A DNA stretch of 64,000 nucleotides from Flaccisagitta enflata (taxonomy: Eukaryota), in the NCBI GenBank assembly GCA_965153355.1, contig OZ231126.1, forward strand, positions 14,756,001-14,820,000, given 5' to 3'. Made by a program: the position numbers and the translations under genes. Shown here one piece after another: positions 1 to 62,625 of the stretch. The notes beneath the pieces were generated by a model, which was not told the DNA's origin, ran no database searches, and saw only the letters and a list, made by a program, of their open reading frames with translations. Numbering within the stretch: position 1 is the stretch's first letter; each line of letters begins with the position of its first letter.

Positions 1-788
1 TGGTCGGTCGGTCGATCGGTCCCAAATATTCTATATATTGCGAGCGGTCGTTTCATTACTATTCTCACTGTTCCTATACATTATTGTTTTATCAATTATC
101 ACCCCTACCCGCAAATTGTAAATCCGGTTGAAAATGCATTTCCATCGAGCAGAAATTTAGATTCGGTTTCAGATTTAAAATCTTTATCCATGCGAAAGAA
201 GAAAACCGTTAGTCAACGACATTTGAATAGGATTAAATCCGGTGGACTGGCAAGCATTTGATTTTTGAATGAGAGGCAAAAACAGAAAAGATTCAAGTCC
301 GAACAGGTTTTGGCCTTAGGGCTTTCCTTTCTTAGTTTATATACTACCAGACGCTATGCGCCTCTTCCTCCTCCTCCTCCTCTTCCTCCTCTTCCCCTTC
401 TCTCCTTCTTTCCGTCTTCCTTTTTCCTGTCTTCCGTTTCCTTTCAGTCTTCCTTCATTGATGGCCTTGAAAGAGAGTCGGCACTCAGGACTCGAGACTC
501 AGATCTCAGGACTCCTTGACTCGATAACACACAATCTGCCAAGTTAGATGATTGATGGTGCAGAAGAGGCACGATAAACCAGATGATAGAGTGAACAAGA
601 CAAAGTAGTACAATAAGATGCGCCGTGTGGATCGTCAGGCGTTTGTGCTACCGACCAACAAACCAACAGACCGACGGACGGACACAGCCATTATAAAGGT
701 GCGTTAGCGCACCTAACAACGGGCATATGACGCCGCTGAAGGAATCTGCATCTGGAGGATGTTTCGGTCAATTTGCTGTTTTTATTGG

Positions 789-2734: not shown

Positions 2735-3863
2735 ATATCTTATCAGACTTGCTCGCGCGAGAAACCGTCTTCCAAACGCGCAGTTGAAGGCACCCGTACT
2801 GGCCGTAGTCAACTAGTGCTGATCAGTGATTATGGAGGTAATCCCATTTCGAGGAAGACGCGAATTTTTTGCTCAAATTCACTCCTTTGAACACAACGCT
2901 ACCGCGATTAAAATAGATCATTTTAATAGAAAAATTGTTATTACTGACTCATTTGGGTTTAAACTAGCATGCGGTGCCTTTCTCTTTTCTCAAAAAATCT
3001 TGGTGATATCTTTTATTGAGCAGGATTCTTTCCTTGTCTAAAGAACCCTTTTTGTTGTATATGAAACATGAGACTGCAATATGTAAATGATGAAATGACT
3101 AAATTCGCCAGGGCTAGGTAATTGTCTATGTAGTCCTCACTTTGAGTGCGCCTAGCCACCTCCTTATGAGGTCGTATCCATCAATAATTGGGTCAGTTCG
3201 TTGCCGCGTCGGTGAGGCGGTCCGTCTGTCCGTCTTTTACACTTGAGTCACAATGACAGACCCTATTCTTCGCATCGCGCTGCTCCTTCCTAGTGTCTGA
3301 CAGGCAGACTAGTGAGACTACATCACTGCGTCTGCCCATCCACACACAACCATAGTTGCCGAATGCCAACCTGTCGTATATCCGACCTTGCTTTTACTTT
3401 TCAGTCGCTGGTGTGTCCGTAGGAAGGTATGCACGTATGCAGGTATAAAGGTTGATAACGCGAAATCATCGATGACGCGAAATCCGCGGAGGTGATGACC
3501 TCTGAGTATTACGGCGCCTGTCCAGCCACATAACAGCCCTCGCCCTGCCCAATGCTACCACTGCCCATCCGCATTACTGCCCCTGTCCATCAACCAGTGC
3601 AGCGACTACTTATCGACCGTGTATACGGCCTTGTTTTTTAAAGGTAGGTATTTCATGTATTTTTTGGTAGACGCGGTCAAATTCCACGCTTGAACATGAC
3701 AAATGTCAATTTGATGGCTCATGGGTGGCGATTCGGGGTCATAAGTCAGTCGGCATCATGCCTCGACTCGAACCGCATTTCGGAAAAAAGCTTCATGAAA
3801 ATTATGACTCTGAGGAGATATATGATCATCGTCGATAAGGGTTGATGATGAAGAGGAGGAGAA

Positions 3864-4581
<718 letters not shown>

Positions 4582-5239
4582 AAGGAGAGGGAGCTGGAGG
4601 AGGCAGGAGGAGGACGTTAACATTCCGGCAGAACGGAGGATATCACTCCAAATTTTTGCGGCTTTTCGTGGGAGAAAATCGATGTTTTCGAGGTAGAAAG
4701 AGCAAAATAAAATGTTTTTTTTTCTGCACGAATTTTGCCTTCTAGCTTCTAATGAAAACAAGGCCGTATGCACCTCCCCTAAGTCGCGAACGGGTTGGAA
4801 AGAGCGGAAAACAGAAATGTGACTGACCGACGGACTGAAGGACCGAGCGACACGGCAAGTTCTAGAGTCGCGTGTCCGCGACTAAAAAGTCAAATAATTT
4901 GACCACTAAACTGAGTCTCTTTTCATTGGCATCAAACCACTGCGCTGCAAGGATTATGACAAAAGATGCACATTGATTTGGACATCAGCTGATCAGCGTG
5001 GAACCGATCAAATGTTTGTTGCATCATTGTTTTATTGTGTATGATATCAGTACTATGATACTCCTATGATCGCATATAATATTGTTCCACTTTTCATAAA
5101 ACAACGCCGGATATACGGCTACTCCAGTCCCGTGCGGGTGAGCAGGGGCAGTATCTAAGGTCACTAGAGAATTTGCCTATGTGCAGAACTGCAGATATCG
5201 ATTCATAGGACTATTTTGATTAGGGACACACACACACAA

Positions 5240-34223: not shown

Positions 34224-35033
34224 GTAGGCACATGCCCCCAACTCTTCTCCTCCAATTACTATCTAGGAAAAAGATAAAGAGGACAGCTGGATAAAAGCTA
34301 GCATTCTTACTCATTGAATGAAATATGAGTTCATATGAATATACCTTTGATCGTAAAGACATAATGTGTTTTGAGTTTCCTCAGGAGGGTTGGTCTTTGA
34401 TTATTTTTACCTAATTTGAAAAATCATTGAATCCTTTGCCTTTGATTTCATCAACAATAAAAAAAATTTAGATAAATGTATATAATCTAGTGAGGCCAAG
34501 CAAAATGATTTTGATCAATCGCTTTGGAAATGAGAGCTCTTTCAATGAAGCTAATTTCTACTACTTCACTTGTTTGAAAATAGCCGGCAAATTTTTCAGA
34601 AAGAATCCGGTCAAGTCGCGGAAAAGATTTTTCCCACAATCAATTTTTTTGCCAAACACATCAAAAGATCCAGCGGCCGACAGAGACGAAAACATTTTTC
34701 CCCCTCTCAATTGCCAACCTCTTTGCTATCGGCATTTTTTTGGATTTCAAAGGCGAAAGAATTTTCCTTTTTTTGTCTGAATTCAAAAAGGGGAGGTTTT
34801 TTTGTAATGCGGTGACAAATTCTATAAAGGCTAAAATCCTGAAAGGACTTGATCCCAGAAAAGACTTGATCCCAGATAAAGACTTGATCCTGCTAAACGA
34901 TTCCAGTAAAAGACTTTCAATTCCTGAAAACTCGATTTCCTGCTTAACGATCATAACCTACGGCGGCGGCGTGGCGGCGGCGGCAAACTCAGTCGGGCGT
35001 CAAGCTTTAATCAAGCAAAACGGCGTCTGGCTT

Positions 35034-36323
35034 ATGTCAGCAACCTCGACGGCGTCACCTCGGGCCCCTGGGGGGCGGGGGTCCCGAAAAATCAAGGAAA
35101 ACCCTCAATACCCATCGCAACCGGGTGTAAGGACGTCAGCGGAGAATCGGCGCCTGGCGGCGGCGGCGGCGCCGGACATGTCTAGTCCTTCAACAACGAC
35201 GAGACCAAAGACAGCACCGTCGACAACGCCAGGCTCAAAGGATAAGAAGAAAAGGCTCAGTTCATCGACGACGCCAAAGGGGGCGACGGCGTCGACGGCG
35301 ACAACGCCGACGGGGCTACTTCCGGCGTCGGCATCGATGCCGGTGGAAAGCGGCGGTGGCGGTGGCGGTGGCAACGCTGAAAAAGCTGATATCATGGTGA
35401 GATTAGCCCAATTGGAGGAGAAAGTTGAGAGATTTGAAGAGGAAGGAAAGCTAAAGGACCGGGAAATCTTTGAGCTCAGAGATCGTCTTGAGGAGGAGGA
35501 GTTTGAGAGGAAGAGAGTCGAGGATAGATTTAAAGATAGATTGGAGGAGGAAGGAAAGAAACAGGAGGAGGAAATCCGAGTTCTAAAGGAGAAAGTCTTG
35601 GAGCTGGAAAAGAAGGAGGAGGGCCGACAGGTGGTGGGAGCAGAAGATCCAAGGCAAGAAGAAGCCAGGGGGGAGCGGGAGAGGTATAAGGGAGTCATCC
35701 TAACGGACTCTAATGGAAGAGGAACAACCGAGGGCACCATTAAGAACCACATCCCGAGGAAAGAGAGGGGAAAGTTTGAGATTCGGGTGGATGACACGGC
35801 ATACACGATGGGAGAAGCCCTTGAACGCGTGGGTGTGGGGGAGGGGAAGGTGGATGTAAGTGGTGCAATAGTAGTGGTCGATTCCCTGACTAACGACATC
35901 AGAGGATCAAGGAAAGTGACTCCGGCGTCACCCGAGGAACTTGTGCATCGTGTTAGTCGGCTGTGGCAAGGACTGTTTGCAGCCGGTGCAGCAGCTGTTG
36001 TAATTTGCGAGGCCAAGCCAATGCGTGACGTCGATGTCTCTCAGCACAATCGCCTTCTCAGCGAGTTTTTGGAGAACAGTGGAGCAGGCGGATATGGTTG
36101 CAGAACCCAGATGAGAATGAACTATCTGAAGATGGATGGCGTCCATTTTTGACCTGAGTTTGGCTCTATCTTAGATCGCACTTATGCATGCGCTATATTA
36201 GGCATACATGTCCCGTGCCCTACCCCGCTTGAGGATTTTGTACCCGAGTTTGTGAGACGTAGGTGGGAGAGAGAGTGGCCTAGGATAGGTAGAGGTGGGC
36301 CAGGAAGGGCGCCCATGTTTTAG
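35034..36323 (+). pseudogene. LINE ORF1: coiled coil plus SGNH esterase-like domain, with a premature stop at 36150-36152
   Basis: Heptad-rich E/K/R segment; SGNH-like blocks ILTDSNGR, VVVDSLTNDIR and DGVHF. The frame stays open after the TGA up to TAG at 36323, 3 nt before the ORF2 ATG. Confidence 0.8.
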
Positions 36324-36326
36324 ACT

Positions 36327-39300
36327 ATGGCGGCTGGTTCTGTTGATCTGCGTGGAGTGGGGCGTTGCCCACGTTGCGAGGTTTGTGGTACCGCTGTTAG
36401 GACGAGGGGTCTGGGGGTTGGGGGGGTGTGGTGCCCGGGTTGCTTAGGTGGTGCCCTGCCCTTTGTTGGACTAGTGGCAGAGGGGGAGTTTAGGGGTGCC
36501 CTTAGGGAGTATAGGGAGGGGCTGGGGTCGAGGGCCAGGGACTTCTTGGGTTTGAGGTGAGGAGGTGAGGGGGGCTCTTGGGGGGGTGGACGCCACACTT
36601 AGGGGGTGTGGGTATGTTGGGGGGGACGAGGTCAGGGGGAAGCTTAGAGAGCGCGCCAGGGATGGGGGCTGTTCCCTCTCCCTCCTCTTCCATAATGTGA
36701 GGAGTGCGCGGGGGCCTGGGATGGAGTTGTTTGAGGCGGAGCTGAGGAGGTGGGGGGTCCAATGGGATGTGGTGGGGTTGGCTGAGACTTGGTTGGATGG
36801 GGAGAGTGAGAAGGGGGTGGCGGTTCAGGGTTACGGGGCGGTGTTTGCATCAAGGGGGAGCAAGAGGGGTGGGGGGGTGGCTCTACTTTTGAGGGATGGA
36901 CTCACGTACAGGGAGAGGCCTGACCTGGGGACTTTTACTGAGGGGGTTTTTGAGTCTCTGTTTGTGGAGATTGTTAGGGGAGGGGGATGTAGGAATGACA
37001 TAATTGGGGTGGTCTATAGGTCCCCAGGGGGAGACCTGGGGGTGTTTAATGATGAGATGGCCAGGGTGCTGACTAGACTCCGGGGGACGGACGCTTACAT
37101 AATGGGTGATTTCAATGTTGACTTGTTGAGGACTGGCACCCATGAGCCAATGTCAGACTTCATGGGGGGATTCTCATCAGGGGGTTTCTACCCCCTGATA
37201 TCTCTCCCCGCAAGGCTGACAGACACTACTGCGACATTGATAGATAACATATGGACCAATAACTTGGGGGTGGGTATTGGGAGTGGGTTGGTGACGGTCA
37301 GGGTGTCGGACCACCTCCCTGTGTTTGCGTTTGTTGGGGGAGGTGGGCCAATAGAGGGGCAGGGGAGTGGGGGGGTGGGAGGTAGGAGGCGGCTGGTGAA
37401 TGAGGGTCGCATTGGCCGGTTTGCTGAGGAGTTGGAGGGGTGGGCTTTTGATGTGGAGGGGGCCCTGGGAGTTGAGGGGAATGTTGCGCGTTTTCGGAAT
37501 GCCTTCAGGGATCTGTATGACGCGCGTTTCCCATGGGTTGAGGACAAGAGGAACCGGAGGTACATTGAGAAGCCCTGGCTCAATGACGCCGAGTTCAAGG
37601 GGCTGGTCAGGGAGAAGGGTGAGCTGTACTCCAGGAAGCTGAGGGGGTTGCTAGATGAGGAGGGTGGGCGTAGACTGGTTGAAGTAAACAGGACAGTGGG
37701 GAACATGAGGCAGCGCCTGAAGAGGGCTTACTTCAACCAGAGGCTGGGTGAGATAGGTGGGGACCTGAGGGCCACCTGGGAGGTTTTGGGGGAGGTTTTA
37801 AGGGGTAGGAAGGGTCAGGGTAAGGGGGCGCCGTGTCGCTACTTCCTGAAGGAGGGGGTGCCGGTGACAGACGGGGCGAGGATAGCGGAGGGGTTCTGTG
37901 ATTTTTATTGCCAGGTGGGGCCGGGGCTGGCGTCTAGGATAGGCAGGGAACGGGATGGGGCCTTCCTGGAGTACATGGGGGAGAGGGTTGAGGAGTCCCT
38001 CATCTGGAGCCCCACGACTCCATTTGAGGTGGAGGAGCTGTGTAGGTCTCTGGCTCCGAGGAAGGGGATGGGGTGGGATGGGGTGTCGCCGCGGGTGATT
38101 AGGGGGGTTGCGAGGGAGCTCTCTGGCTCCTTGTCGAGGCTCTTCAACTGCTGCATGCGGGGTGGTTTCTATCCTGCTTGCTTCAAGGTTGCAAGGGTGG
38201 TCCTGGTTTTCAAGGGAGGGGACCCCACTGAGTTCTCGAACTATCGCCCGGTTTCGGTCCTGCCTGTACTCTCTCAGCTCTTTGAGAGGGTGTTGCAGAA
38301 GAGGCTGGTGGCCTTCTTCGACAGGCACCGGGTGATCGTCCCGGGGCAGTATGGGTTCAGGGCTGGTCATTCCACGTCCATGGCTGTATTGGACATGGTG
38401 GAGAGGGTAAGGGGGGCATGGGAGAAAGGGGACGTCTCTCTTGGGGTTTTCATAGACCTCAAGAAGGCGTTCGACACAGTGGACCATCAGCTTCTCCTTG
38501 GGAAGCTGGAGCATTATGGAGTGAGGGGGCAGACTCTGGAGCTCCTCCGGAGTTACCTGGAGGGGAGGGCCCAGTATGTTCAGTATGGGGGTTTTGAGTC
38601 AGAAAGGGGTCAGGTTGAGTGTGGAGTCCCTCAAGGATCAGTGTTAGGCCCTCTGTTCTTCTTGATCTATGTCAACGACATGGCAAGAGCATGCAGGGGC
38701 CATGATCTGGTCCTTTTTGCGGATGACACAAATATTTTTGCCCAGGGGAGGGACCCTGCTGAGCTTTTTGGGTTGGTGAATGGGGGTTTGGGTGAGCTCA
38801 GCAGATGGTTTAGGTGCAACAGACTTACTCTGAACTTGAAAAAGACTGAGTTTGTCTACTTTGGCGGACCTGGGGCCAGGGGGCACCTACCGGAAAGGCT
38901 GGGGCTGGAGTTTGGAGGTGAGAGGGTGGTACAGGTGGATGGGTCTTGTTTTCTAGGGGTGTGGGTGGATGGGGGCTTGAGGTGGTCGGGGCAGATAGAG
39001 CAGGTCCGGACGAAGGTTGCCCGGCTGCTGGGGGTGCTTGGTAGGGCGGGGGAGGTTTTGAGTAGTGGGTCCCTTCTCTCGCTCTATAATGCGTTGGTCC
39101 TCCCACACCTGCAGTACTGCCTTATGGTGTGGGGAGATTTCAAGGGTGGGCGGAATCTGACAGTGGGGGGGGCTCTTCTTAGGTACCAGAAGAGATTTGC
39201 TGGCCTGGTTGCTGGAAAGAGGGGGCGGTACCATGCAGACCCGCCCCTGGCTCAGCATGGCATGCTCAAGGTGGAGGACCTGTACAGGCAACAGCTCCGG

Positions 39301-39495
39301 GTCCACGCCTGGTGCTTCTGGAGGGGCAGGCTCCAAGAGAACCAGGCAGCTATGCTGGGCAGGATTGATGGGGTGCATGGGTATGGGACGAGGGCTGCAA
39401 GGGGGGGGCTTTATCTTTCGACCAGGGACCATAGGTCAGTGGGGTACAGGGTGCTGAAGGAGTGGGCGGCTTTGGGGGAGGATCACAGGGGGTTT
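36327..39495 (+). pseudogene. LINE ORF2: Cys-rich N-terminus, APE endonuclease and reverse transcriptase; frameshift near 36560
   Basis: CEVC...WCPGCLGGALPF; APE motifs LAETW, YRSP, GDFNVD, TLIDNIW, SDHLPVF; RT motifs NYRPVSVLP, QYGFR, DLKKAFDTVDH, GVPQGSVLGP, FADDT. Confidence 0.95.
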
Positions 39496-41322
39496 GTTTG
39501 TTTGTTATCCAACGTAGAAGATCGAGTTGACTAAATAAAATCGTCCAGAGAAGAGAGAGAGTCAGAAAGGGAAATGTGGCCCGGAGAGTCCGAGTTGAAG
39601 GATGAGGATGAAGGAATCGAGAGAGTTGAGAAAAGCGAGTGAGAAGAAGAACCGCCCGGCGAAGGTGGTGGGGCCGGAGGTGGCCGGCCGTTAGGATGGA
39701 TTGACGGCGGCTATAAATTACGCCCACGAGTTTCAACTGGCACTGTCTATGAGCGTCTAGCTGACTGACGACTTGTGGTGAAAGAAAGTTGGCCGATTGG
39801 AAAATAGGAAGGCGATCGTCTCGTTTATTCCATAAAAATTTCAACAACTGAAGAGAGGGGATAAAATGAAAGGGAAAGTGGGCGTTAATGGTGATCAGCA
39901 AACGCAAAAGATAACATGAAATCGAGACAGGACACAATAAAGGACAGAAACAGCACATGACAACATGTTCATCTTCTTCAGAGCCCATGCCACCTGATAA
40001 TACCTGCCCCTGCCCCGGCCCATCCCATTAAATTCATCCATATCATCCCCATAGTAAGCTGATCGGGCAAACGATAAAACCATACTAAAATCCATCGATA
40101 AAATGCAAAATGCAAAAGACAAAAATAACAGACCGGAAGACAAGATAAAAACAACGTTACTAAAAGCAAAGACGCGTCTATAAAACTTACTTTTAGGCCC
40201 ACTTTCGTTGGTTTCAACCCACAGTCTGTCGATGTCAAACTAACGTTAATTGTCCGTTCATAAGTTTATCTGCAATAAAAAGATGAGAGATTATTGAAAT
40301 TAGTAAATTCCAAGGGCACATTCAATCAATCACGAAAAATCAATCAATCACTTTAGGAAGCACATTAAATAAAAATAAAAACAATCGATCCAAAATTGGA
40401 TGACACGAAACGAGTTACGTATGTTTGTTTACGTAATAAAAACAAATGGCATAAAATACAAGGCGCAACCATATGGTTACCCATCTAGCTTTATATAAAA
40501 ATGCGAGAAACAAAAGACACCGGCATTGAATAATAAGAAAGAAGAAAATCAAAAGCACGCAAAAGAAACAAAAGCACACATACTTAATAGACGGACGGAC
40601 ATACATTTCTAACATTCTGCCCCATATTTTTGGAATTTCACTAATTTCAAAACTGACATCTAGTTTCCGGTCGGGGAAACCTCACAAAAACCGACATTAC
40701 CTTCCTTAAAAAATTTACATAGACATGGTGCTCCTCGCCCTCCCCCGTCCACCGCCTCATATCCCCACCCCAATTATCATCAACAGATCGACGACTGCAC
40801 GAATGATGACTCCTGTCCGGAAAGGATCCACCACCAGCAAATTTTCAACGATCAACGATGACGCGGATGGAGACGAGTATGCACGAGGAGGTTGAGGCAC
40901 CCTGCCTCTGTAAAAGTTAAGGGAAAGGGGGGAAGGGAACGTGGCCTGGAGCACTCAAGCCTGGATTTGACTGAGAGGGAAACAATATAGGGGGTATACT
41001 ATCAGTAACATGTCATACGAAAGTATTCAGAAAATGACTAAAAAGACCATGTCTAAAACAAACACAACAAATGTACATGTTCCATAGGAAATCAAACAAA
41101 AACAAGACAAAATTAACAAATATTAACTATATATAAAAACGAACCCAAAGCAAAAAAAAATAGTAAGCATCATGGAACGACCACATCACCTATGCCTACC
41201 CATTACAGAGACGAGCGGGTCATTCCGGCCCAACATCTCACAATCTGTGGGCGGTAAAGGCGATGATGATATCGCCAACGGCACCGCATCGAAAGGCGTG
41301 AGGGTGGTGCAGCCGCCTGAGA

Positions 41323-44010: not shown

Positions 44011-44389
44011 AACATGGGAGAGTGGTTTGAAGGGTTATTGTCACTGGGCTGAGGCTGAAGGGGCTAGGGACTAATGGCAGTGTTAAAAAAAAATCATGGT
44101 AAATGGTAATGGTTTATTCAAATATCTAAACGTGGATAATGAAGAAAACATGGTAAAAAAAGTCATGTTCATTGCAATAGAATGACATTCATCACTAACT
44201 AAAACTTTTTTGCGCCGCACTGAAGAGTTACACTGTGATGGGTTTAGTACTTAGTAGGAGGGCCGATGAAAAAAGGGTACTTTTAACTGGACTGGGGCCA
44301 AAAGGTTCAGAGGAGGAGAGCGAGGGTCTAACGCCCGGCGTCAGGAGGCCAGGGGCAAAAGTGGGTCAAATAGACGAAAGAGGTCGAAA

Positions 44390-46919
<2,530 letters not shown>

Positions 46920-46994
46920 GCTCGCTGTAGTGATAAGGTATGGAGGTCAGACAGGGGTCATAAAGATGGCACTGGGAGGCAGAATGAGGTGAAA

Positions 46995-47512
46995 GCAGTA
47001 GAAGTGTAGTATGATGGAGTGGGTCCGAGTAAACATTGTGTGGGGCTGACTGTAGAAAGTTGGTGTAAAGAATGTAGGATGGGCTGAAGTGTTAGGCCTA
47101 CACTGTGGGCTAGTAGTAAAGTAGGAGGCAGTGGTTCTGAGTAAAAATTTGGTGGGGCTGACTATGTGAAATTGGTGTAGACTGTAGGGAATGAAGAAGT
47201 AGGATGGAGTCGATCCGAGCAAAAATTGGGAGGGGTTGACTGTGTGAAGATGGTGCAATGAATGTAGAATGGGCTGTAGTGTAAGCTAGTGGTGGAGTAG
47301 GAAGAAGTGGATCCTAGTGAACATTGGGTGGGGTTGACTGTGTGAAGTTGGTGTAATGAATGTAGGATGGGCTGTAGTGTAAGCTAGTGGTGGAGTAGGA
47401 AGAAGTGGATCTTAGTGAACATTGGGTGGGGTTGACTGTGTGAAGGATGGGCTGTAGTGTAGGATAGTAGTGGAGTGGGAAGGAGTGGATCCGAGTGAAT
47501 ATTGGGTGGGGT
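46995..47512. repeat. Degenerate ~85-bp tandem repeat
   Basis: Recurring GTGAACATTGGGTGGGGTTGACTGTGTGAA and GTAGGATGGGCTGTAGTGTAAG blocks. Confidence 0.75.
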
Positions 47513-50436: not shown

Positions 50437-52587
50437 AATTATGATTTCCTGAGTGATGTAGAATTGATAACCGTAAAAACGACCTCTTGAATTCTTAATC
50501 AGTGGGTTGGCCCTATAACCAGCCCCTTCATGACTCCACCCAGTCTCGCTCAACATAATAATTCATTTCATTTTCATCCATGATCAATCATCCGGTCGTT
50601 TGACCTAAAAAATGACCGCATAGACTTAGAGAGACTTTGACCCAAAAATGCCCATGGGCCTTGTTCCAAATTCATAAGTCATAATGGCCAAAGCGATACG
50701 TTTCATCAGGAAATGTTGAGATAGAGGAAGAGAGGGAAGAGAAATGGATGAAAAGAAGGAAAAAAAAGAACGCGAGAGAAAGAGAGATGAACATTTAAGG
50801 TCACGTAAGATAAACGGAAGAAGAGAAGCAATAGTCGCGGAAAATTGGGTAAGGATCAGGGATGAGGAAGCGGTTGACCGCTTCCAAGTTGAAGGATTGG
50901 AAAGATTCTTGTATCTGAACTTTAAATGGAAGCGGAAGCGAAATCGGAATTGAAAGCGGTATGAAAATCGCCTCCACATCCCTAGTTGGAACAGTATTTC
51001 ATTACGCGCATTCGCACTCTTTAAAAAAAAGGCTTTATTTCATAAATGAAACAGCGAGTCAAAGGGTGACGAGTAAGAATCAATTGATTTAAGAGGCAAT
51101 CAATAATGTAATACATTGGACTCGAAGCATGACCAAGCACCATATTTACATGGAAACAAGGCCAAGCAGGCCAAGTAGGTGCGCCGTGTCGATCGTCAAA
51201 CATATGCGTTACCCGACCAACCGACCAACCGACAGACACAGCCAGACGGACACAGGGATGCTTTGGCGCAGCTAAAAATGACAATTTAAATACATGTATA
51301 CAATGTAAAGAGTGGGAACATAAAAGATTATGCATTCATTCTCTGAAAGTGGTTTCCGGCAATTTTGCCCACAGAGTTCATGGCTCATTGCTCAGAGGAA
51401 TCCGTCAGAGCCGACCTATTGTATTGAATTTTCTCCAAAACAAGATAAAAGAAATAAAAGTCGCAAAAGCGTTAGATGGTCAGCGGTACCCGTGCCCTGC
51501 CTAATTAGGTTGTGTTTGAAGTTGAAGGGGAAGCAGGGCTGCGGCCCAGAGGGGGTCGATGACCTATGCTTTGACATATATGGGGAATTTTCGCCTTCTC
51601 TTGCATCCGTCCGTCCTTCTGTCAGTCCGTTCCCCCCAGTCTCGAGGCTCGAATCCAAGTGCCAAGACCCAAATCTCAGCCTCATGGCCCAAATCCTAGC
51701 CTCAAGGCCAAATTCTAGCCTGGAGGCTAGGATCTGCTTCTCTTGGCTGGGATTTGGGCCTCACGGCTGGGATTTGGGCCTCCGGACTAGGACTTGGGCC
51801 TCCAGGCTAGGATTTGGGCCACGAGGCTGGGATTTGGGTCTTGGGACTGGGATTTGAGCCTTGAGCCGAGGGGGGGACAGACGGACAGTTGGACGGACGG
51901 ACGGACGGACTGACGGACAGATGGAATGATGGACGGACGGACAGACGGACGGACGGATGGACAGACGGACGAACGGACTACAAAAGGATGGATGGACGGA
52001 TGGACGGACGGACGGAGGAGAAAGAGAAAATTCCCCAAATGTGTGAAAGTATAGGTCATCGCTGCCCAAAAAGGGGACCAACTGACCAACCAACTGACCA
52101 ACGGACTGACATAGCGGGGTGTAGAGTTGCGTATCCCGCGACTAAATAATGGCAGAGGATGGCGACCATATAGTTAACTAAGACATCAGATTTGGTACCT
52201 CAATGAGGTCAATGAATAGGAGGGTATACAGAACTGAAGCAGGACTGCCTTATAAATAGACTCAGAATTGGGCAAAGACAATGAAAAAAAATCTACAAGA
52301 ATAGTCCAAAAGATACTATCTATTTCCTCAAAGTCAAAGTCCTCAGGACCACTACAAAATGACCTTTCCTGCCATGTACAAATCTTACTTAATGAATTCT
52401 CGTTGTCCGTGGGATGATGAATATTTATAAACAACCCTTGTATTTGTGTTTGACCCTTATTTCAATGAAAATGATCAGGATTCAGGAAGCGATAGCTTTT
52501 TGATGTTCTCTTTAAAATTTCACCAAATTTATTGGACACCCTGTTAATGATAAGAGCCTTTTATGTTTTTCTCATATTTCTTCGACA

Positions 52588-53547
52588 CTATTCACCACTT
52601 TTGCAGGCAAATGCATTTCTTAGTTTAGGAAATAATATTAAGTAACCAAAAATATGCAAAAAAGAGGCGAGAGAGAAAAACCCGGCGCTAAGATTGTTTA
52701 TCGCCATTTCGTCATCCAACAAATTCTCTTGTTTGCAATTATTTGCCTCGTAAAATCGCGGCAATATATACAGAGGAACATCGTGGCCTATCAATATCAA
52801 GTTAACAATCAATGGAATATAGACGAAAATGCCCAGAGATTGATAAACTTGGGCTCTGTCGTTTCTGTTGGTCAATTGTAAGGAGGTTTGCAGCTTTGTC
52901 CTAACGGAATGGCCAATCTTAACAACGGCGATTGTATACAATATCTTGATGATGCCAATTTTCACAAACGAGAACCAACCACTACCGCGAAAGAATTTGG
53001 GATATACTGAAAACTCGTAGGTATAAGCGAGTTGATATGTGCAGAAAATTGCATTGGCTACTTTGTCGCCGCTTAGAACGAAACTGACGCACGCGCCTAT
53101 GACCACCATCTTCACCACGTTTTTACCAGAACTGAATGATTCGTATTTGAATGAGTCGCAAATCATAACGTGGACATCGATACTTTGCATAAGCGACAGG
53201 AAATAGTGATTGATGTAGAGGAATTCTTGAAACAGTGCTAAGGTAATTTTGGATAATTGAAAAAAGTAATATTCGCTGTTGATTAATTTAGATAACGCCT
53301 CGAATGATGTATTTTCTTTGATCCACAACTGAAAAACCATAAAAATTGACATATACAAAACCACGCAAATCTGTTGAAGAATGGTGAAGATTCTTCTGGG
53401 GCCTTTGAGATTCCACGCCAGTAACGGTAATATGCTAATGCTCAATCCGGCGCATAAACACATCATCGTTACGCAAGGAATGATGATGCTGTTCCTTGAT
53501 TCTCTACGTCGCTTAAAGCATTCGTAAGAATTAGAACCTAAAATCAA
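52588..53547 (-). CDS. Divergent 7TM GPCR-like (chemoreceptor-like) protein, uninterrupted 7TM region, start uncertain
   Basis: About 7 hydrophobic segments. TM3 end SLMQSIDVHVMICDSFKY resembles S.DRY.AIC.PF.Y; C-terminal LHIFGYLILFPKLRNAF is TM7/helix 8-like. The ORF begins at TTG, which overlaps a likely acceptor (TTGATTTTAG|GT), so an upstream exon is probable. Confidence 0.75.
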   Translation of the reverse strand: MILGSNSYECFKRRRESRNSIIIPCVTMMCLCAGLSISILPLLAWNLKGPRRIFTILQQICVVLYMSIFMVFQLWIKENTSFEALSKLINSEYYFFQLSKITLALFQEFLYINHYFLSLMQSIDVHVMICDSFKYESFSSGKNVVKMVVIGACVSFVLSGDKVANAIFCTYQLAYTYEFSVYPKFFRGSGWFSFVKIGIIKILYTIAVVKIGHSVRTKLQTSLQLTNRNDRAQVYQSLGIFVYIPLIVNLILIGHDVPLYILPRFYEANNCKQENLLDDEMAINNLSAGFFSLASFLHIFGYLILFPKLRNAFACKSGE

Positions 53548-55654
53548 GAATGTAGGAATGCGATAATCTCAGATGGTATACCATTTTCAGGCATGTCGTA
53601 TTTCTTGCATTATATTGACTGAAAACAACCATCACTCCCAATTGTCCAAAAGAGTGATATGTTATGGTTCAAAACGGATACGCAAAAAAAGTGCTACTGA
53701 CCTTCAGGCATTAGGTGTTCATACAAAATATTCGTCTCATTCTTTGATAAGCTGAACAAAAAATCACAAGCTGGTTTAAGATGAGGAGGATAACTTTGAT
53801 AGCACGTATATACATCCATGATATCAAGCTGGTTGAATATGAGGGGGATAACTTTGTTAGCAGGCATCCATATCCATGATATCAAGCTTGATTCCTTGCT
53901 ATATCAGTATAAATAAGTTTGAAATATCTAATTACTGCCTTGATTTGATTTTGCTAATCAGTGCTGTGCAAATCAGTAAAAATAAGTTTGAAATATTTAT
54001 TAACTACCTTGATTTGATTTTGCTAATCAGTAAGGTGCTAATCAATACTGTGCAAAACGGTTATGCTTAGTCTGTTTCTTAGTAGTACCGTCAGAACTGC
54101 ATTTGTTTCTGCCATAACTGTGAAAAAAATGCTGGATATTACCATTTTAAAACAAGACACAAATAACTGAGAGGCTGGAAACTGGCAAGACGGCATAAGA
54201 GAGCGAGACCTTTAGCCTGATAGACTGACCTACTTAGTAACTCACTGACCGGCAGACTGCCCCCCCCCTACAATACTAAGGGCGCACTCCATCCCCTCAT
54301 CTCTCTACCTCGACTGCTATACTTGACTACTTTTAAACTTGACTATTATTGAACTATGATTGGGTTGCACAACTTACTTTCTTACGTACTTACTGAATGA
54401 CGGTCTGACTGATCGATGGCTGACACTTGAAAGGTGAGTACAGTAACGTGAAAGAGACAGAGTCCCGTGCGCCGTAAAAGGCTTTAAAGGAAAGAGTTTC
54501 AGAATCCTAAAACTTTTAATCACCATTAGAAATTATTTCGGTTCTATACAAAAAACGATTTGGCGGAACTGAATGATGGAAGGTGTCCACTGTAGCGACT
54601 TCCAACTGTCACCTTTACTAATACTCGCTTCAAAATCAATTAGAATTAGAAATCTACTTTCAATGTAAAATGCAAAATCTGAATTTAATTATGATGCTGT
54701 CAAAATGAATCAAGATGTAACTGAATCCAGTTTTTTACAGAATAGAGAGTTGTATGCTACTCTAAATTGTCTTCTTTTATCTCTGTTTGAAACTTCAACA
54801 AGTTCAATAGCGTAAATAGATAATGGCACGCAATGCGTTGTGACAAGATGCACAAGACAGGGGAGGGGGGGATACGGACAGACGTAGAAGGAGAAAATTC
54901 CCCATATGTGTGAAAGCATAGGTCATCAACCCCTTCGGGGCCGCTGCCCAAAAAGGACGAAAGAGAAGCTGAGGAAGATGAGGAAGCGGAGGAGGCGGAG
55001 AAGGGGAGGAAGGTCGTCTCTGTCTGGAAATTCATTAGAGAGAAAAAGTTATTAGAGCAGTTTTGATGGATATGTATTCTCTCTCTGAGATGGCTTTTGC
55101 TCATCCTTTATCTTCTCATTACTTTGTCCTTTACTTCCTTCCATTATTTGTTTTACTTACCGTACTTGTTCCTTACTAATGGCTAATTCCGTGTTTCGTC
55201 ATGCGCGCGAGAAACCCTGACTCTCCACCATTGTAGAAGTGTCATTGCTTCTTCTGCTGAATTGCATAAGGTCACAAAGGTTGGGTGACATACCTAACTA
55301 TCTGGTGTGCCATACTAAACCAATTTTTGCCACACCGACTGCCCCTATGGGATCCAAAACAGGGGTAGAAGGGTCGATTTGGGCCTGTCCCGATTTTGTC
55401 CCTGCAAGCAAAACGCAAGTTTAACCAATCAAAAAATGTCAATTGGGGTCATCCAATAGCTTGTAAGCAATCACTGTCAATCCATTGATATGTGTAGAAA
55501 GTTTGTATTCAATATTTGTATATCTCTGCTCATCGCATTCATTAAAATGGTTCCTACGTCAGACTCAAAGCCAGTCACAGACTGGGGTATCTGCTAGGAC
55601 ACCAAAAACATATCCAATGGAACAAATCATCAGCCTCTAGTAAGTCAGCCTTCT

Positions 55655-55709
55655 TGGTCTAATGGTTAGAACACTTGCCTTCAGAAATGAGGGTCAGGGG
55701 TTCGAATCC
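55655..55709 (+). promoter_or_regulatory. tRNA-type Pol III internal promoter (A box and B box), repeated in each unit
   Basis: A box TGGTCTAATGG (55655-55665) and B box GGTTCGAATCC (55699-55709) at tRNA-like spacing. No run of 4 or more T in the unit; the first T5 is at 57467. Confidence 0.75.
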
Positions 55710-55728
55710 AGGACGGGCATGAAGGTAA

Positions 55729-55786
55729 CACAGGAGTTTGAGGGAGCGCTTAAAACGCTGAGTCGGTCCCAAGCCCGACAACTGTG
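55729..55786 (+). ncRNA. Twister ribozyme-like motif, P5-type permutation, copy 1
   Basis: CACAG-GA-GTTT-GAGGG-AGCGCT-TAA-AAC-GC-TGA-GTCGG-TCCCAAGC-CCGAC-AA-CTGTG: closing stem CACAG/CTGTG, P4 GTCGG/CCGAC with UCCCAAGC loop, GAGGG and GC pseudoknot partners; predicted U^A site at 55751/55752. Confidence 0.75.
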
Positions 55787-56025
55787 GTGACTTACTATGC
55801 TGATGTAAAACAAATTGTATATCTCTGCTCATCGCATTCATTAAAATGGTTCCTACGTCAGACTCAAAGCAAATCACAGTCTGGGCTATTGCCATGGACA
55901 CCAGTTGAAACTCTGCGAACTTATAATCAGCCTCTAGTAAGTCAGCCTTCATGGTCTAATGGTTAGAACACTTGCCTTCAGAAATGAGGGTCAGGGGTTC
56001 GAATCCAGAACGGGCATGAAGGTAA

Positions 56026-56083
56026 CACAGGAGTTTGAGGGAGCGCTTAAAATGCTGAGTCGGTCCCAAGCCCGACAACTGTG
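56026..56083 (+). ncRNA. Twister ribozyme-like motif, copy 2
   Basis: As copy 1; the AAAC>AAAT change keeps P2 as a G-U wobble. Confidence 0.72.
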
Positions 56084-56324
56084 GTGACTTACTATGCTGA
56101 TGTAAAACAAATTGTATATCTCTGCTCATCGCATTCATTAAAATGGTTCCTACGTCAGACTCAAAGCCAGTCACAGACTGGGGTATCTGCTAGGACACCA
56201 AAAACATATCCAATGGAACAAATCATCAGCCTCTAGTAAGTCAGCCTTCATGGTCTAATGGTTAGAACACTTGCCTTCAGAAATGAGGGTCAGGGGTTCA
56301 AATCCAGGACGGGCATGAAGGTAA

Positions 56325-56382
56325 CACAGGAGTTTGAGGGAGCGCTTAAAACGCTGAGTCGGTCCCAAGCCCGACAACTGTG
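56325..56382 (+). ncRNA. Twister ribozyme-like motif, copy 3
   Basis: Same sequence as copy 1. Confidence 0.75.
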
Positions 56383-56623
56383 GTGACTTACTATGCTGAT
56401 GTAAAACAAATTGTATATCTCTGCTCATCGCATTCATTAAAATGGTTCCTACGTCAGACTCAAAGCCAGTCACAGACTGGGGTATCTGCTAGGACACCAA
56501 AAACATAGCCAATGGAACAAATCATCAGCCTCTAGTAAGTCAGCCTTCATGGTCTAATGGTTAGAACACTTGCCTTCAGAAATGAGGGTCAGGGGTTCGA
56601 ATCCAGGACGGGCATGAAGGTAA

Positions 56624-56681
56624 CACAGGAGTTTGAGGGAGCGCTTAAAACGCTGAGTCGGTCCCAAGCCCGACAACTGTG
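56624..56681 (+). ncRNA. Twister ribozyme-like motif, copy 4
   Basis: Same sequence as copy 1. Confidence 0.75.
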
Positions 56682-56922
56682 GTGACTTACTATGCTGATG
56701 TAAAACAAATTGTATATCTCTGCTCATCGCATTCATTAAAATGGTTCCTACGTCAGACTCAAAGCCAGTCACAGACTGGGGTATCTGCTAGGACACCAAA
56801 AACATATCCAATGGAACAAATCATCAGCCTCTAGTAAGTCAGCCTTCATGGTCTAATGGTTAGAACACTTGCCTTCAGAAATGAGGGTCAGGGGTTCGAA
56901 TCCAGGACGGGCATGAAGGTAA

Positions 56923-56980
56923 CACAGGAGTTTGAGGGAGCGCTTAAAACGCTGAGTCGGTCCCAAGCCCGACAACTGTG
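56923..56980 (+). ncRNA. Twister ribozyme-like motif, copy 5
   Basis: Same sequence as copy 1. Confidence 0.75.
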
Positions 56981-57221
56981 GTGACTTACTATGCCGATGT
57001 AAAACAAATTGTATATCTCTGCTCATCGCATTCATTAAAATGGTTCCTACGTCAGACTCAAAGCCAGTCACAGACTGGGGTATCTGCTAGGACACCAAAA
57101 ACATATCCAATGGAACAAATCATCAGCCTCTAGTAAGTCAGCCTTCATGGTCTAATGGTTAGAACACTTGCCTTCAGAAATGAGGGTCAGGGGTTCGAAT
57201 CCAGGACGGGCATGAAGGTAA

Positions 57222-57279
57222 CACAGGAGTTTGAGGGAGCGCTTAAAACGCTGAGTCGGTCCCAAGCCCGACAACTGTG
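57222..57279 (+). ncRNA. Twister ribozyme-like motif, copy 6
   Basis: Same sequence as copy 1. Confidence 0.75.
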
Positions 57280-58634
57280 GTGACTTACTATGCTGATGTA
57301 AAACAAATTGTATATCTCTGCTCATCGCATTCATTAAAATGGTTCCTACGTCAGACTCAAAGCCAGTCACAGACTGGGGTATCTGCTAGGACACCAAAAA
57401 CATATCCAATATTTCAACTGTAAGATGACAAAAAATGAATTTGAATTATGATACTCTTCCCCTTTATTTTTCTGTCATTTTTTACTAAAAATGAGTTAGG
57501 TAGACAGTTTTTTTCGTAGGCCTATCTTTACTCAAACATTAAGCATTTTTTCTTTTTTCATTGTATTAAGGTTTAGTTGAAGGACCTTTCCTCCGATTTT
57601 CAAAGATTTTTTCCATTTCAATCATGAGAAATACTTATTTTCCTGGAGCGTTACAATTCAAAGGTGCTCCTTGTTGTAGCTGTCACACTTGTGTCACACT
57701 ATGATTCATACTATGCCACGGCATAGTAACATAAGTGACGAAAAATTCATCTACATAATGGGAAAGAAAATCAAATTCTGTACTTGCAGCTAAAATTTCA
57801 ACTCTTAACTCCAAACTGTTTGGTCACAGTGAAATTCCAAAGATGATCACTACAAAAATAAGAATTGAATTGTAATGCTCGCCGACCAAGCTTTGTAGTT
57901 AATTCTTTGTTTCCACACAGCGCTTCCCACACATATGTGCGATGCTTTTAAGTTTTATTTTGATAAAATTTCTCAAAATTCAAATTTGCATATCTCAGGA
58001 ACTATCTGAGTAAGCCCTATGAAATTTTGCCTGGTTGGTATCTAGATCAAGAGACTCCTTTGCCTAAATTCTGATGCGACCTAGAGAATGTTGAGCAGTC
58101 CAACCAGACCAACCAGCCTACCAGATAAAAAAATGAAAAAAAGGCATAACTTCTAAAATAGTTGACCGATCTGGTTGAAATTTTGCATGGAGCTTCCTTT
58201 AAAGATTCCTTGTCATTGGCATAAAAAAAAGCATGGGAAAAATTTTTTTCTTCCAACAGCCCACCCAGCCAGAAATAGTGCTTATAGAGATTTTCTTAAA
58301 AAACTAAAAAAATTCAAAAAAATTTCAGAAACATGATCACACATGTTTGCTTGAACGTTATCAATAAGAATTTCACTGTCAGATTGATTTCATAATTGTA
58401 TTTAGCTAAATTTTCTAGTAATAAAATTGCCAACAATATCTATTTAAGCCTAATTTGCATGGAAAATGAGTTTACTTAAGAAAATCTAAGTATGGATTTA
58501 TATGTAAGAATAGGTGAGCTACATGATGACATATGGTTTTGTTCAATTTTCAAACATGTAAAATTGACAAATTTCATCCCGTCCACGGTCGGCTTAGCGT
58601 GACACCAGTCTAATGAATTTGGATCTCTGGGTGT

Positions 58635-59647
<1,013 letters not shown>

Positions 59648-61003
59648 CTCTGCCTCATTTCTTCATCTCATTCTAGCTACCTGTCAAGGACAGGCATTTT
59701 TTCCTTTATTCTTCTCCTTTTCGCTCTTGATCTATCTTTCTTTCTCTTGCATTCCCTTCTTTCTTTCTTTAATGCTGTTCATCCTATTCAGGGAGTTGAA
59801 TCGTGACTCGGCATATTAACGAGAGTCACGCGGAAAAGCACATGTTCAAAAATTAGGCGAAAAAAAAAAGCTTACTTCCAGTTTGGCCAAGTGTGATAAA
59901 AATACATTTGATGGGATGCGAAAGTCACAGAGTGAGATTCGGACGCGCAAGCAATGCCCTAGATCCCACCACCCCCAAAAATTAATGTCAATGTTTGTAT
60001 ATTGGCAATAAGGCAGCTTCACTGTAAGGCATGATATTGCCCAGTCCTTAAGACATGCGGCTCAAGTTTGTTCTTTATCAGCATAAGTGGCCAAATTTGG
60101 AAACGAGATACGAGTTTAATTCTTCATTAGTGTTTACTTGATTCAAAATCCGACAAACGAAGTACATGTGCATTCAATGAAATATCTAAGACAAATACGA
60201 TTCTCCTTGGACCATTCATGCTTAAGTAAATCAATCGTGCTGCAACCAAATTGGAAAACTGGAAATTTAGAAATTTAGAAATTAACATTCAACATTGACT
60301 TCGGAAATCAGCGTAATCTATAGAGAAAAAAAAACAGGGATGTCCCCCCTTTGGCTGGTTGTTATTGTAAGTAATTAAAACTCAAAACTTCATTCTAAAA
60401 CAATCAAATGAAAACAAGGCCGGATACACGGCTAACCATGTCGCTCACGGGTGGACAGGGGCAGTGGGCAGGGGCAGTGATGAGAAAGTCCAAACATTTA
60501 GGCAGGTGCAGTGATGCAAAAACCGTCCATAGCAGCAAAAATAATGTTACCGTCGGATCGCCCATAGCAGCCCATAGCAGCCCATAGCAACCCATAGCAA
60601 CCCATAGCAGCCCATAGCGGCAAAAATTATATTACCGTCAGACCGACAAACCAAGCGACCGAACGATGGAGTCGTTTAGCACGTGACTAAAAAACTCTGC
60701 TCTAACTAAAACATGAAATAGCTAGCTGGACACATCCTCACTCTTGCCACTTTGCTACGGAAGCCACTGAGTAGGGCACTGGATGAGTCTGTTGGTCTGT
60801 CAGCCTACTTTTCCTTTCTTTTTCCATGTTTTTAGTCGCGGACACGCGACTCTACATCTTGGTCCGTCGGTCGGTACGTAACAAATATTTTTGAATTAAG
60901 AGCGGTTTTTTTCATCGCGGCCCCTGCCCAACCGTCCGCGACTGTCCTGCCGTGTATCCGGCCTTGTTTATAATTAAAATCAGAAATTTGCTTACATTCG
61001 ATG

Positions 61004-62409: not shown

Positions 62410-62527
<118 letters not shown>

Positions 62528-62528
62528 C

Positions 62529-62625
<97 letters not shown>

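Follow-up and report, generated by a model that had tools for sequence, protein, structure and literature searches.

Can a short motif that resembles a twister ribozyme with almost no P1 helix be a functional self-cleaving RNA, and if so, in what form would it act? The question is raised by a 58-nt motif that occurs six times in a tandem array with a 299-bp unit in the genome of Flaccisagitta enflata (assembly GCA_965153355.1, contig OZ231126.1, positions 14,756,001 to 14,820,000 of the forward strand; this whole stretch of 64,000 nt is called the window below). We favor, with a probability of about 0.4 as judged from sequence, the reading that each 299-bp unit carries an active ribozyme of the twister class whose activity would be favored by dimer formation. 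By analogy with described systems, the element is probably similar to a retrozyme or to the SINE-like (short interspersed element-like) repeats of schistosomes, with a twister variant in place of the hammerhead and with a "double twister" formed between units as its most active state.

Examination of the motif layout revealed all twister modules in the permuted order of type P5, in agreement with a preliminary description of this locus. From 5' to 3' it consists of CACAG (P5 5' strand), GA, GUU (P2 3' strand), U, GAGGG, AGCGCU, UAA with the predicted scissile bond between U and the first A, AAC (P2 5' strand), GC, UGA, GUCGG (P4), UCCCAAGC, CCGAC (P4'), AA, and CUGUG (P5 3' strand), and the Rfam alignment likewise corresponds to Twister-P5. 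The nucleotides that are strongly conserved according to the criteria of PMC5408937, namely UAA and GAGGG in L1, GC in L2, and GUCCCAAGC in L4, are intact in six of six copies, including the A located 3' of the scissile bond. Both pseudoknot complements can be read directly: T1 would be formed by CCC of L4 and GGG of L1 (55742-55744 with 55768-55770), and T2 by GC of L4 and GC of L2 (55757-55758 with 55773-55774). The T1 and T2 positions are invariant and thus display no covariation. The core is closed by the 5-bp P5 helix CACAG/CUGUG.

At the Rfam gathering score, no family was matched in the whole window. A search of all families reported by E-value and restricted to positions 55000-57000, where five of the six copies are located, yielded matches of Twister-P5 (RF02684) to all five, with scores of 30.4 bits (four copies) and 29.7 bits (one copy) and E-values from 7e-4 to 1e-3, every one of them below the family cut-off of 37.6 bits. 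These scores stay under the cut-off because the P1 loop has 0 nt instead of the 14 nt of the model, and because P2 is aligned with a gap and only three pairs. Among the 14 low-stringency matches in the same region, no ribozyme family other than Twister-P5 was present on either strand, and no hammerhead was found on either strand at E-values up to 10; bxd_1 and the other low-scoring rows were judged to be chance matches. A 40-nt core of the motif occurs six times in the window, five times exactly and once with a single mismatch (C to U in P2 of copy 2, giving AAU, so that the C-G pair with GUU becomes U-G), and 0 of 100 dinucleotide shuffles contained any match to it. On this basis the motif is supported as a permuted, type-P5 twister-like sequence with unusually short P1 and P2.

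An independent example of the same arrangement came from a pattern scan of metagenome contigs, in which GAGGG, UAA, GC, and the L4 core were fixed and P1 was left free (N{4,8}). The seven loci recovered include one loop-less form (L002), four ordinary twisters, and two sequences without twister pairing. L002 matches Twister-P5 with 34.8 bits and has a P1 loop of 0 nt; its sole likeness to the window is the core (a 27-nt BLAST match), and the flanks are unrelated. The P4 stem, which the preliminary description had considered to be compensatory, pairs at five of five positions in both loci, and two of the five pairs are changed on both sides (GUCGG/CCGAC in the window, CUUGG/CCAAG in L002). The P1 segment of L002, GCACGUGU, self-pairs at four of four positions, one of them G-U, and differs in length and sequence from AGCGCU of the window, which is self-complementary at three of three. 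P4 covariation and P1 self-pairing were counted by a script and come from two lineages only. The chance of self-complementarity is 0.016 for a 6-mer with Watson-Crick pairs and 0.020 for an 8-mer allowing G-U; if a mini-hairpin sufficed, both inner tetranucleotides (GCGC and ACGU) would be palindromic by chance in 1 of 256 cases, a post hoc estimate from two observations. The re-made palindromic P1 of L002, together with a tandem array that supplies a second copy, lends indirect support from sequence comparison to the earlier suggestion of dimeric cleavage between units.

With this second locus at hand, a chance resemblance to a twister inside a repeat, which would be in keeping with the merely sub-threshold Rfam match, is scarcely credible. 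It conflicts with the E-value of 7e-4 in a 2-kb search of all families, with the empty set of shuffles, with the simultaneous complementarity of P4, P5, T1, and T2, and with the L002 locus itself. Chance and any other explanation taken jointly are very improbable.

The loop-less form looks rare in the sequences scanned. Using a pattern with a 4-nt P2, we found no loop-less form in prokaryote species genomes (two matches) or in viral contigs (two matches), all matches having an ordinary P1, and the UAAAACGC subfamily pattern with a P1 of 4-34 nt had 0 matches in prokaryote species genomes and 0 in viral contigs. Several candidates were rejected. L001, L003, and L006 have no twister pairing; L004, L005, L007, L008, L011, and L012 are ordinary twisters in which GAGGG happens to occur in the P1 loop; L009 and L010 resemble type-P1 forms with a chance GAGGG upstream. 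The environmental type-P5 loci L004, L005, L007, and L008 possess full P1 hairpins and a second GAGGG inside the P1 loop. In the L002 contig, positions 28-297 of the minus strand, 3' of the loop-less twister, contain the C-terminal part of a tyrosine-recombinase-like frame (Pfam Phage_integrase, 21.6 bits, below the cut-off), and a half-copy of the 5' part of the ribozyme, GCUGUUGAGGG, is located about 110 nt upstream (approximately 520-545, minus strand).

Three structural peculiarities pointed out in the preliminary description, a vestigial P1, two possible pairings of P2, and a competing hairpin, were all borne out; the same description took the hairpin, which could sequester the cleavage site, as a hint at slow, switchable, or dimeric cleavage. 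P1 is reduced to the palindromic hexamer AGCGCU. On itself this hexamer can close through a single A-U pair at most, with GCGC as the loop, and doing so costs about +4 kcal/mol (-4.6 versus -8.6); no looped P1 helix is available inside one molecule, and a 6-bp P1 is possible solely between two copies. P2 can be read as AAC/GUU, which has three pairs and leaves one U over, or as AAAC/GUUU, which takes up the second A of UAA; a P2 with four Watson-Crick pairs adjoining the sheared A-G pair is not found. The ordinary twisters L004, L005, L007, and L008 likewise have 3 nt between UAA and GC, and a 3-bp P2 is therefore a natural variant. According to published work, twisters without P1 are cleaved at a near wild-type rate, P1 being dispensable (PMC5408937), and in a massively parallel assay of type-P1 twisters the length and stability of P1 and P2 had no effect and imperfections were tolerated, P1 length and stability being without influence among 2625 candidates, all of type P1 and none of type P5 (PMC11662667). 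Since P1 is dispensable and imperfections of P1 and P2 are tolerated in these studies, a weak P1 and P2 do not by themselves predict poor activity.

We propose P1 pairing between units because a loop-less palindromic P1 cannot form within one ribozyme. The plus strand of the unit would encode a self-cleaving, type-P5 permuted variant of the twister class 3' of a tRNA-like segment, and transcripts reading through the array would be cut between U and A of UAA at the six predicted bonds (Table 1). The expected products are unit RNAs of 299 nt that bear a 5'-OH and a 2',3'-cyclic phosphate, termini that serve as substrates of circularization by RtcB-type ligases. AGCGCU would pair with AGCGCU of the neighboring unit and the P2 and P5 strands would be swapped, resulting in a domain-swapped "double twister"; oligomers would thereby be cut efficiently, and unit-length or circular RNAs would be spared. 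The RNA may then be copied into DNA by the reverse transcriptase of a retrotransposon, leaving multimeric insertions with short target duplications. By nearest-neighbor energies, the domain-swapped dimer amounts to -28.7 kcal/mol versus 2 x -8.6 (-17.2) kcal/mol for two monomeric twister folds. A crystal form of the rice twister also contained intermolecular dimers, which were reported as an artifact (PMC5408937). In full-text searches, we met no report of a dimeric twister or of a twister located within an element of the tandem-repeat, retrozyme-like, or SINE-like kind; the searches did not extend to the supplementary lists of PMC8501958, with 2060 T-variants, and of PMC11662667, with candidates from 1129 species, which may already include this motif. 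The most far-reaching version of the proposal, a first natural "double twister" driving a twister-based retrozyme that makes 299-nt circular RNAs from a tandem transcript of RNA polymerase III, is rather unlikely.

Signals from RNA libraries are consistent with transcription of the unit but are no proof of it. Words of the array were present in 20 listed runs from 14 studies, nearly all of them marine metagenomes and six being RNA libraries; run shares, 0.27-0.42, were taken as evidence only for four RNA runs that were aligned to one unit (copy 3 as the reference). In four of four aligned runs, each from a different study, one contig of 328-329 nt wraps the unit at a depth of 9-19. This length equals 298 or 299 nt plus a 30-nt overlap, that is, a closed cycle without flanks, and one of the four studies used an oligo-dT library. 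The closed cycle is compatible with RNA that is tandem or circular; assembly would give the same result for tandem DNA, for multimeric RNA, and for circular RNA. Two differences from the window are common to all four runs, one of them restoring the B box of the other window copies. Run X18 has C at position n-1 (56347), where every base is tolerated in type-P1 forms (PMC11662667).

The plus strand of the unit is also unusually structured. Folded as a circle, it reaches -98.7 kcal/mol versus -71.6 ± 5.1 kcal/mol for shuffles (z = -5.3); for the minus strand z is -3.0. The GC content of the unit is 45.8%. Unit 2 deviates from the otherwise near-identical units in that about 55 nt of its center (window 55870-55930) are swapped for divergent sequence; the ribozyme and tRNA-like parts are unchanged there, and the replaced stretch forms a variable module of the repeat family.

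A tRNA-like segment lies about 20 nt 5' of each core. What we take to be A-box-like and B-box-like sequences are separated by about 33 nt in six of six units (TGGTCTAATGG and GGTTCGAATCC in unit 1, one B box being GGTTCAAATCC), and ARAGORN at an 80% threshold called just one of the six, copy 1, as a tRNA-Phe(gaa)-like gene. The segment may be an internal promoter of RNA polymerase III. At the borders of the array, the heptamer CAATATT occurs exactly twice within 55401-57500, once at each junction, both occurrences partly overlapping the end bases of the unit itself; the pair fits a 7-bp target-site duplication. The array starts and ends at unit positions other than the cleavage site, which makes insertion of a cut linear monomer less likely and points to a template that was multimeric or circular, or to later expansion in situ. 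In the rest of the window, neither a further copy nor a fragment of the 299-bp unit was found.

Several observations weigh against an active, dimer-favored ribozyme. Apart from the Rfam scores, some concern the predicted structure. With P4 and P5 kept, the competing hairpin AGCG-CUUAAAA-CGCU computes to -14.5 kcal/mol versus -8.6 or -10.9 kcal/mol for the pseudoknot-free twister fold. In a partition function of a two-unit transcript, a model that ignores pseudoknots, the probabilities of the inter-unit P1 and of the cis P2 are each close to 0, that of the competing hairpin is 0.02-0.3, and that of P4 is about 0.7. In these models the active fold is not favored by secondary-structure energetics alone, and tertiary pairing would have to pay for it. 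Crystal structures display a P2 of four pairs plus the A-G pair, and a changed number of P2 pairs has been suggested to disturb the active site (PMC5408937). Finally, L002 has no tandem repeat in its 1388 bp, where a partner copy for dimerization is not evident.

The last observation and the missing inter-unit P1 in pseudoknot-free folding would be expected if the ribozyme were an active, self-contained monomer in the same element context, a natural "mini-twister" in which a 6-nt connecting loop replaces P1, cutting occurs in cis, and the palindrome is incidental. The motif is a contiguous 58-nt domain closed by P5 that requires no partner, and the dispensability of P1 (PMC5408937) and its lack of influence among the type-P1 candidates (PMC11662667) agree with such a monomer. 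Nevertheless, both loop-less examples, unlike in sequence and length, have a self-complementary P1, which would be met about once in 256 cases were the outer pairs alone of importance; the scans of prokaryotic and viral twisters yielded no loop-less form; and an efficiently self-cutting monomer would re-cut its own circle. We regard the self-contained monomer as unlikely.

Further objections to the dimer-favored ribozyme come from the transcripts and from the promoter. The RNA runs are assembled contigs, which carry neither the strand nor the ends of the molecules, and carry-over of DNA is possible. In the assembled sequence of run X20, the catalytic A (56348) is replaced by G, as is position 56350, and three of the seven distinct differences between runs fall into the 4-nt stretch at the scissile bond (56347, 56348, and 56350; U to C, A to G, and A to G in X18 and X20). 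At least for the population behind X20, this clustering speaks against catalysis being under purifying selection; its candidate causes are allelic change, editing, and an error of reverse transcription at a ligation junction. The window copies, 96-100% alike, are too similar for selection to show. The tRNA likeness is weak: ARAGORN at default settings made no tRNA call, and no Rfam tRNA match was obtained. Runs of T4 are absent from the plus strand of the unit, but also from 936 of 2000 shuffles, which is not significant; the first T5 on this strand lies 57 nt beyond the array, and the lack of a T4 run is merely compatible with read-through by RNA polymerase III.

Part of this evidence would equally suit an inactive relic, that is, a satellite- or SINE-derived repeat that once gained a twister and has been kept by recent amplification, the RNA signal being read-through or carried-over DNA. 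Such a relic would be in agreement with the Rfam scores under the cut-off, the shortened P2 (PMC5408937), the stabler competing hairpin, the clustering of differences at the site of cleavage, and the similarity of the copies, owing to which conservation says little. The G at the catalytic A in X20 points in the same direction: none of the five ribozymes examined retained activity once this A was replaced by U or C, A-to-G being unreported in the available part of that study (PMC11662667). On the other hand, all six copies and the assembled sequences of three of the four RNA runs, including X18 with its n-1 change only, retain every strongly conserved nucleotide as well as both pseudoknot complements. 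The unrelated L002 locus keeps the core with a compensated P4 and a re-made palindromic P1, the plus-strand RNA is unusually structured, and the identical closed unit-length cycle was assembled in four RNA studies, one of them oligo-dT. The relic is rather unlikely in our judgment, and the dimer-favored ribozyme remains the reading that we prefer.

Table 1. Coordinates of the array, the twister-like cores, and associated features in the window
Feature	Positions	Strand	Remarks
Tandem array	55516-57410	+	299-bp unit, 6.3 copies, 96% matches; Tandem Repeats Finder
Twister-like core, copy 1	55729-55786	+	The motif first described; predicted bond U55751/A55752; P1 palindrome 55745-55750; competing hairpin 55745-55759
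Twister-like core, copy 2	56026-56083	+	Predicted bond 56048/56049; Rfam 29.7 bits
Twister-like core, copy 3	56325-56382	+	Predicted bond 56347/56348; reference for RNA-run contigs
Twister-like core, copy 4	56624-56681	+	Predicted bond 56646/56647
Twister-like core, copy 5	56923-56980	+	Predicted bond 56945/56946
Twister-like core, copy 6	57222-57279	+	Predicted bond 57244/57245; outside the 55000-57000 Rfam range
tRNA-gene-like segment, unit 1	55648-55719	+	A-box-like 55655-55665; B-box-like 55699-55709
Direct repeat CAATATT, left	55510-55516		Candidate target-site duplication; array junction
Direct repeat CAATATT, right	57407-57413		Array junction

Elsewhere in the window, a non-LTR (non-long terminal repeat) retrotransposon occupies positions 34584-39534 of the plus strand. 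Its 992-aa frame (36556-39534), with matches to Exo_endo_phos (4.5e-12, an APE-type endonuclease) and RVT_1 (1.4e-33), is preceded by a 522-aa frame (34584-36152). A link between this retrotransposon (36556-39534) and the 299-bp unit was rejected, the two having no sequence in common. An intronless 326-aa frame at 52591-53568 (minus strand) has language-model neighbors in clusters of invertebrate rhodopsin-type or serpentine-type G-protein-coupled receptors, which is in keeping with an animal source of the DNA. The window also contains two short arrays of a 20-bp repeat at 51663-51721 and 51745-51865, the consensus unit of one being approximately the reverse complement of the other, and next to them (GGAC)n at 51875-52016; very long (TG)n/(TC)n microsatellites at 58640-59651 and 62414-62624; and long low-complexity tracts at 3746-4881 and 44328-47091, with single-residue runs in the translated frames.

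Comparison with known systems places the motif close to type-P5 twisters (RF02684, clan CL00120; PMC5408937), with which it shares the module order P2', GAGGG, P1, UAA, P2, GC, P4/L4, the conserved loop nucleotides, a P4 extended by a G-C pair, the T1 and T2 complements, the predicted U-A scissile bond, and termini in P5. It differs from them in the loop-less, 6-nt palindromic P1 (the model loop has 14 nt), in a P2 of three pairs with a spare U rather than four, and in its host, the motif belonging to a repeat of an animal genome and not to a bacterial or phage intergenic region.

The element as a whole resembles the metazoan non-LTR retrozymes (PMC7229834) in several respects: its tandem repeats are short (299 bp here, 170-400 nt there) with a GC content below 50%, each unit has a single small ribozyme, in one polarity only, a short candidate duplication lies at the flanks, the unit RNA is predicted to be highly structured, and closed cycles of unit length are assembled from RNA libraries. 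In contrast to the retrozymes, the ribozyme is twister-like and not a type I hammerhead, and a tRNA-like segment is unmentioned for retrozymes in the available part of that paper. Circular RNA is known for the retrozymes, whose RNAs with hammerhead ends are circularized by RtcB (PMC7229834), whereas only assembled closed cycles are at hand here. The proposed double twister is analogous to the double hammerheads of newt and axolotl repeats; in the axolotl, the hammerhead helix III has a single base pair under a palindromic tetraloop, and these ribozymes function as dimers (PMC7229834).

The SINE-like repeats of schistosomes combine a promoter of RNA polymerase III with a hammerhead (PMC6765202). 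As in these repeats, the units in the window are tandem and have a tRNA-type internal promoter-like segment followed by a self-cleaving ribozyme motif, an order in which only tandem copies yield full-length units after cleavage. The differences are the twister-like instead of the hammerhead ribozyme and the weak support for the promoter role and tRNA origin in the present case.

Two further groups carry twisters themselves. The T-variants of Perere-3/RTE (PMC8501958; PMC7761336) are similar in their defective or absent P1, in the varying number of A residues where cleavage occurs, in the tie to retrotransposition, and in an invertebrate host. They are type-P1 twisters cutting at the extreme 5' end of the element, with the P1 5' strand derived from the target site (PMC8501958), whereas the window motif is of type P5, would be cut in mid-ribozyme, has a palindromic P1, and belongs to a non-coding tandem repeat. 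Viroid-like circular RNAs (bioRxiv 10.1101/2022.07.19.500677) are likewise small RNAs with twisters, which process the circles there. Most of those reported carry twister-P1, both polarities often contain a ribozyme, and a DNA copy has not been described for them; the window element differs by its genomic DNA array and by a ribozyme restricted to a single polarity.

Within the literature surveyed, it is hammerheads that are described for the retrozymes of animals, the satellite repeats of newts, and the SINE-like repeats of schistosomes, and twisters of animals are so far linked to the 5' ends of RTE/Perere-3 elements alone. If the favored reading is true, a twister has assumed the role of the hammerhead in a tandem repeat, and this life-style would be independent of the ribozyme class. 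The palindromic, loop-less P1 would extend the principle of being cut as a dimer and surviving as a monomer to a second class of ribozymes. Such forms would be missed by the Rfam cut-off and by the type-P1 descriptors of large surveys, and the number of twisters in eukaryotic repeats may thus be underestimated. A further possible use of the element is as a compact, naturally occurring scaffold for circular RNA production. The Tornado design is reportedly an engineered system in which a twister and RtcB are combined for circular RNA expression. If true, a double twister retrozyme would be a natural counterpart of this type of design in an abundant marine animal.

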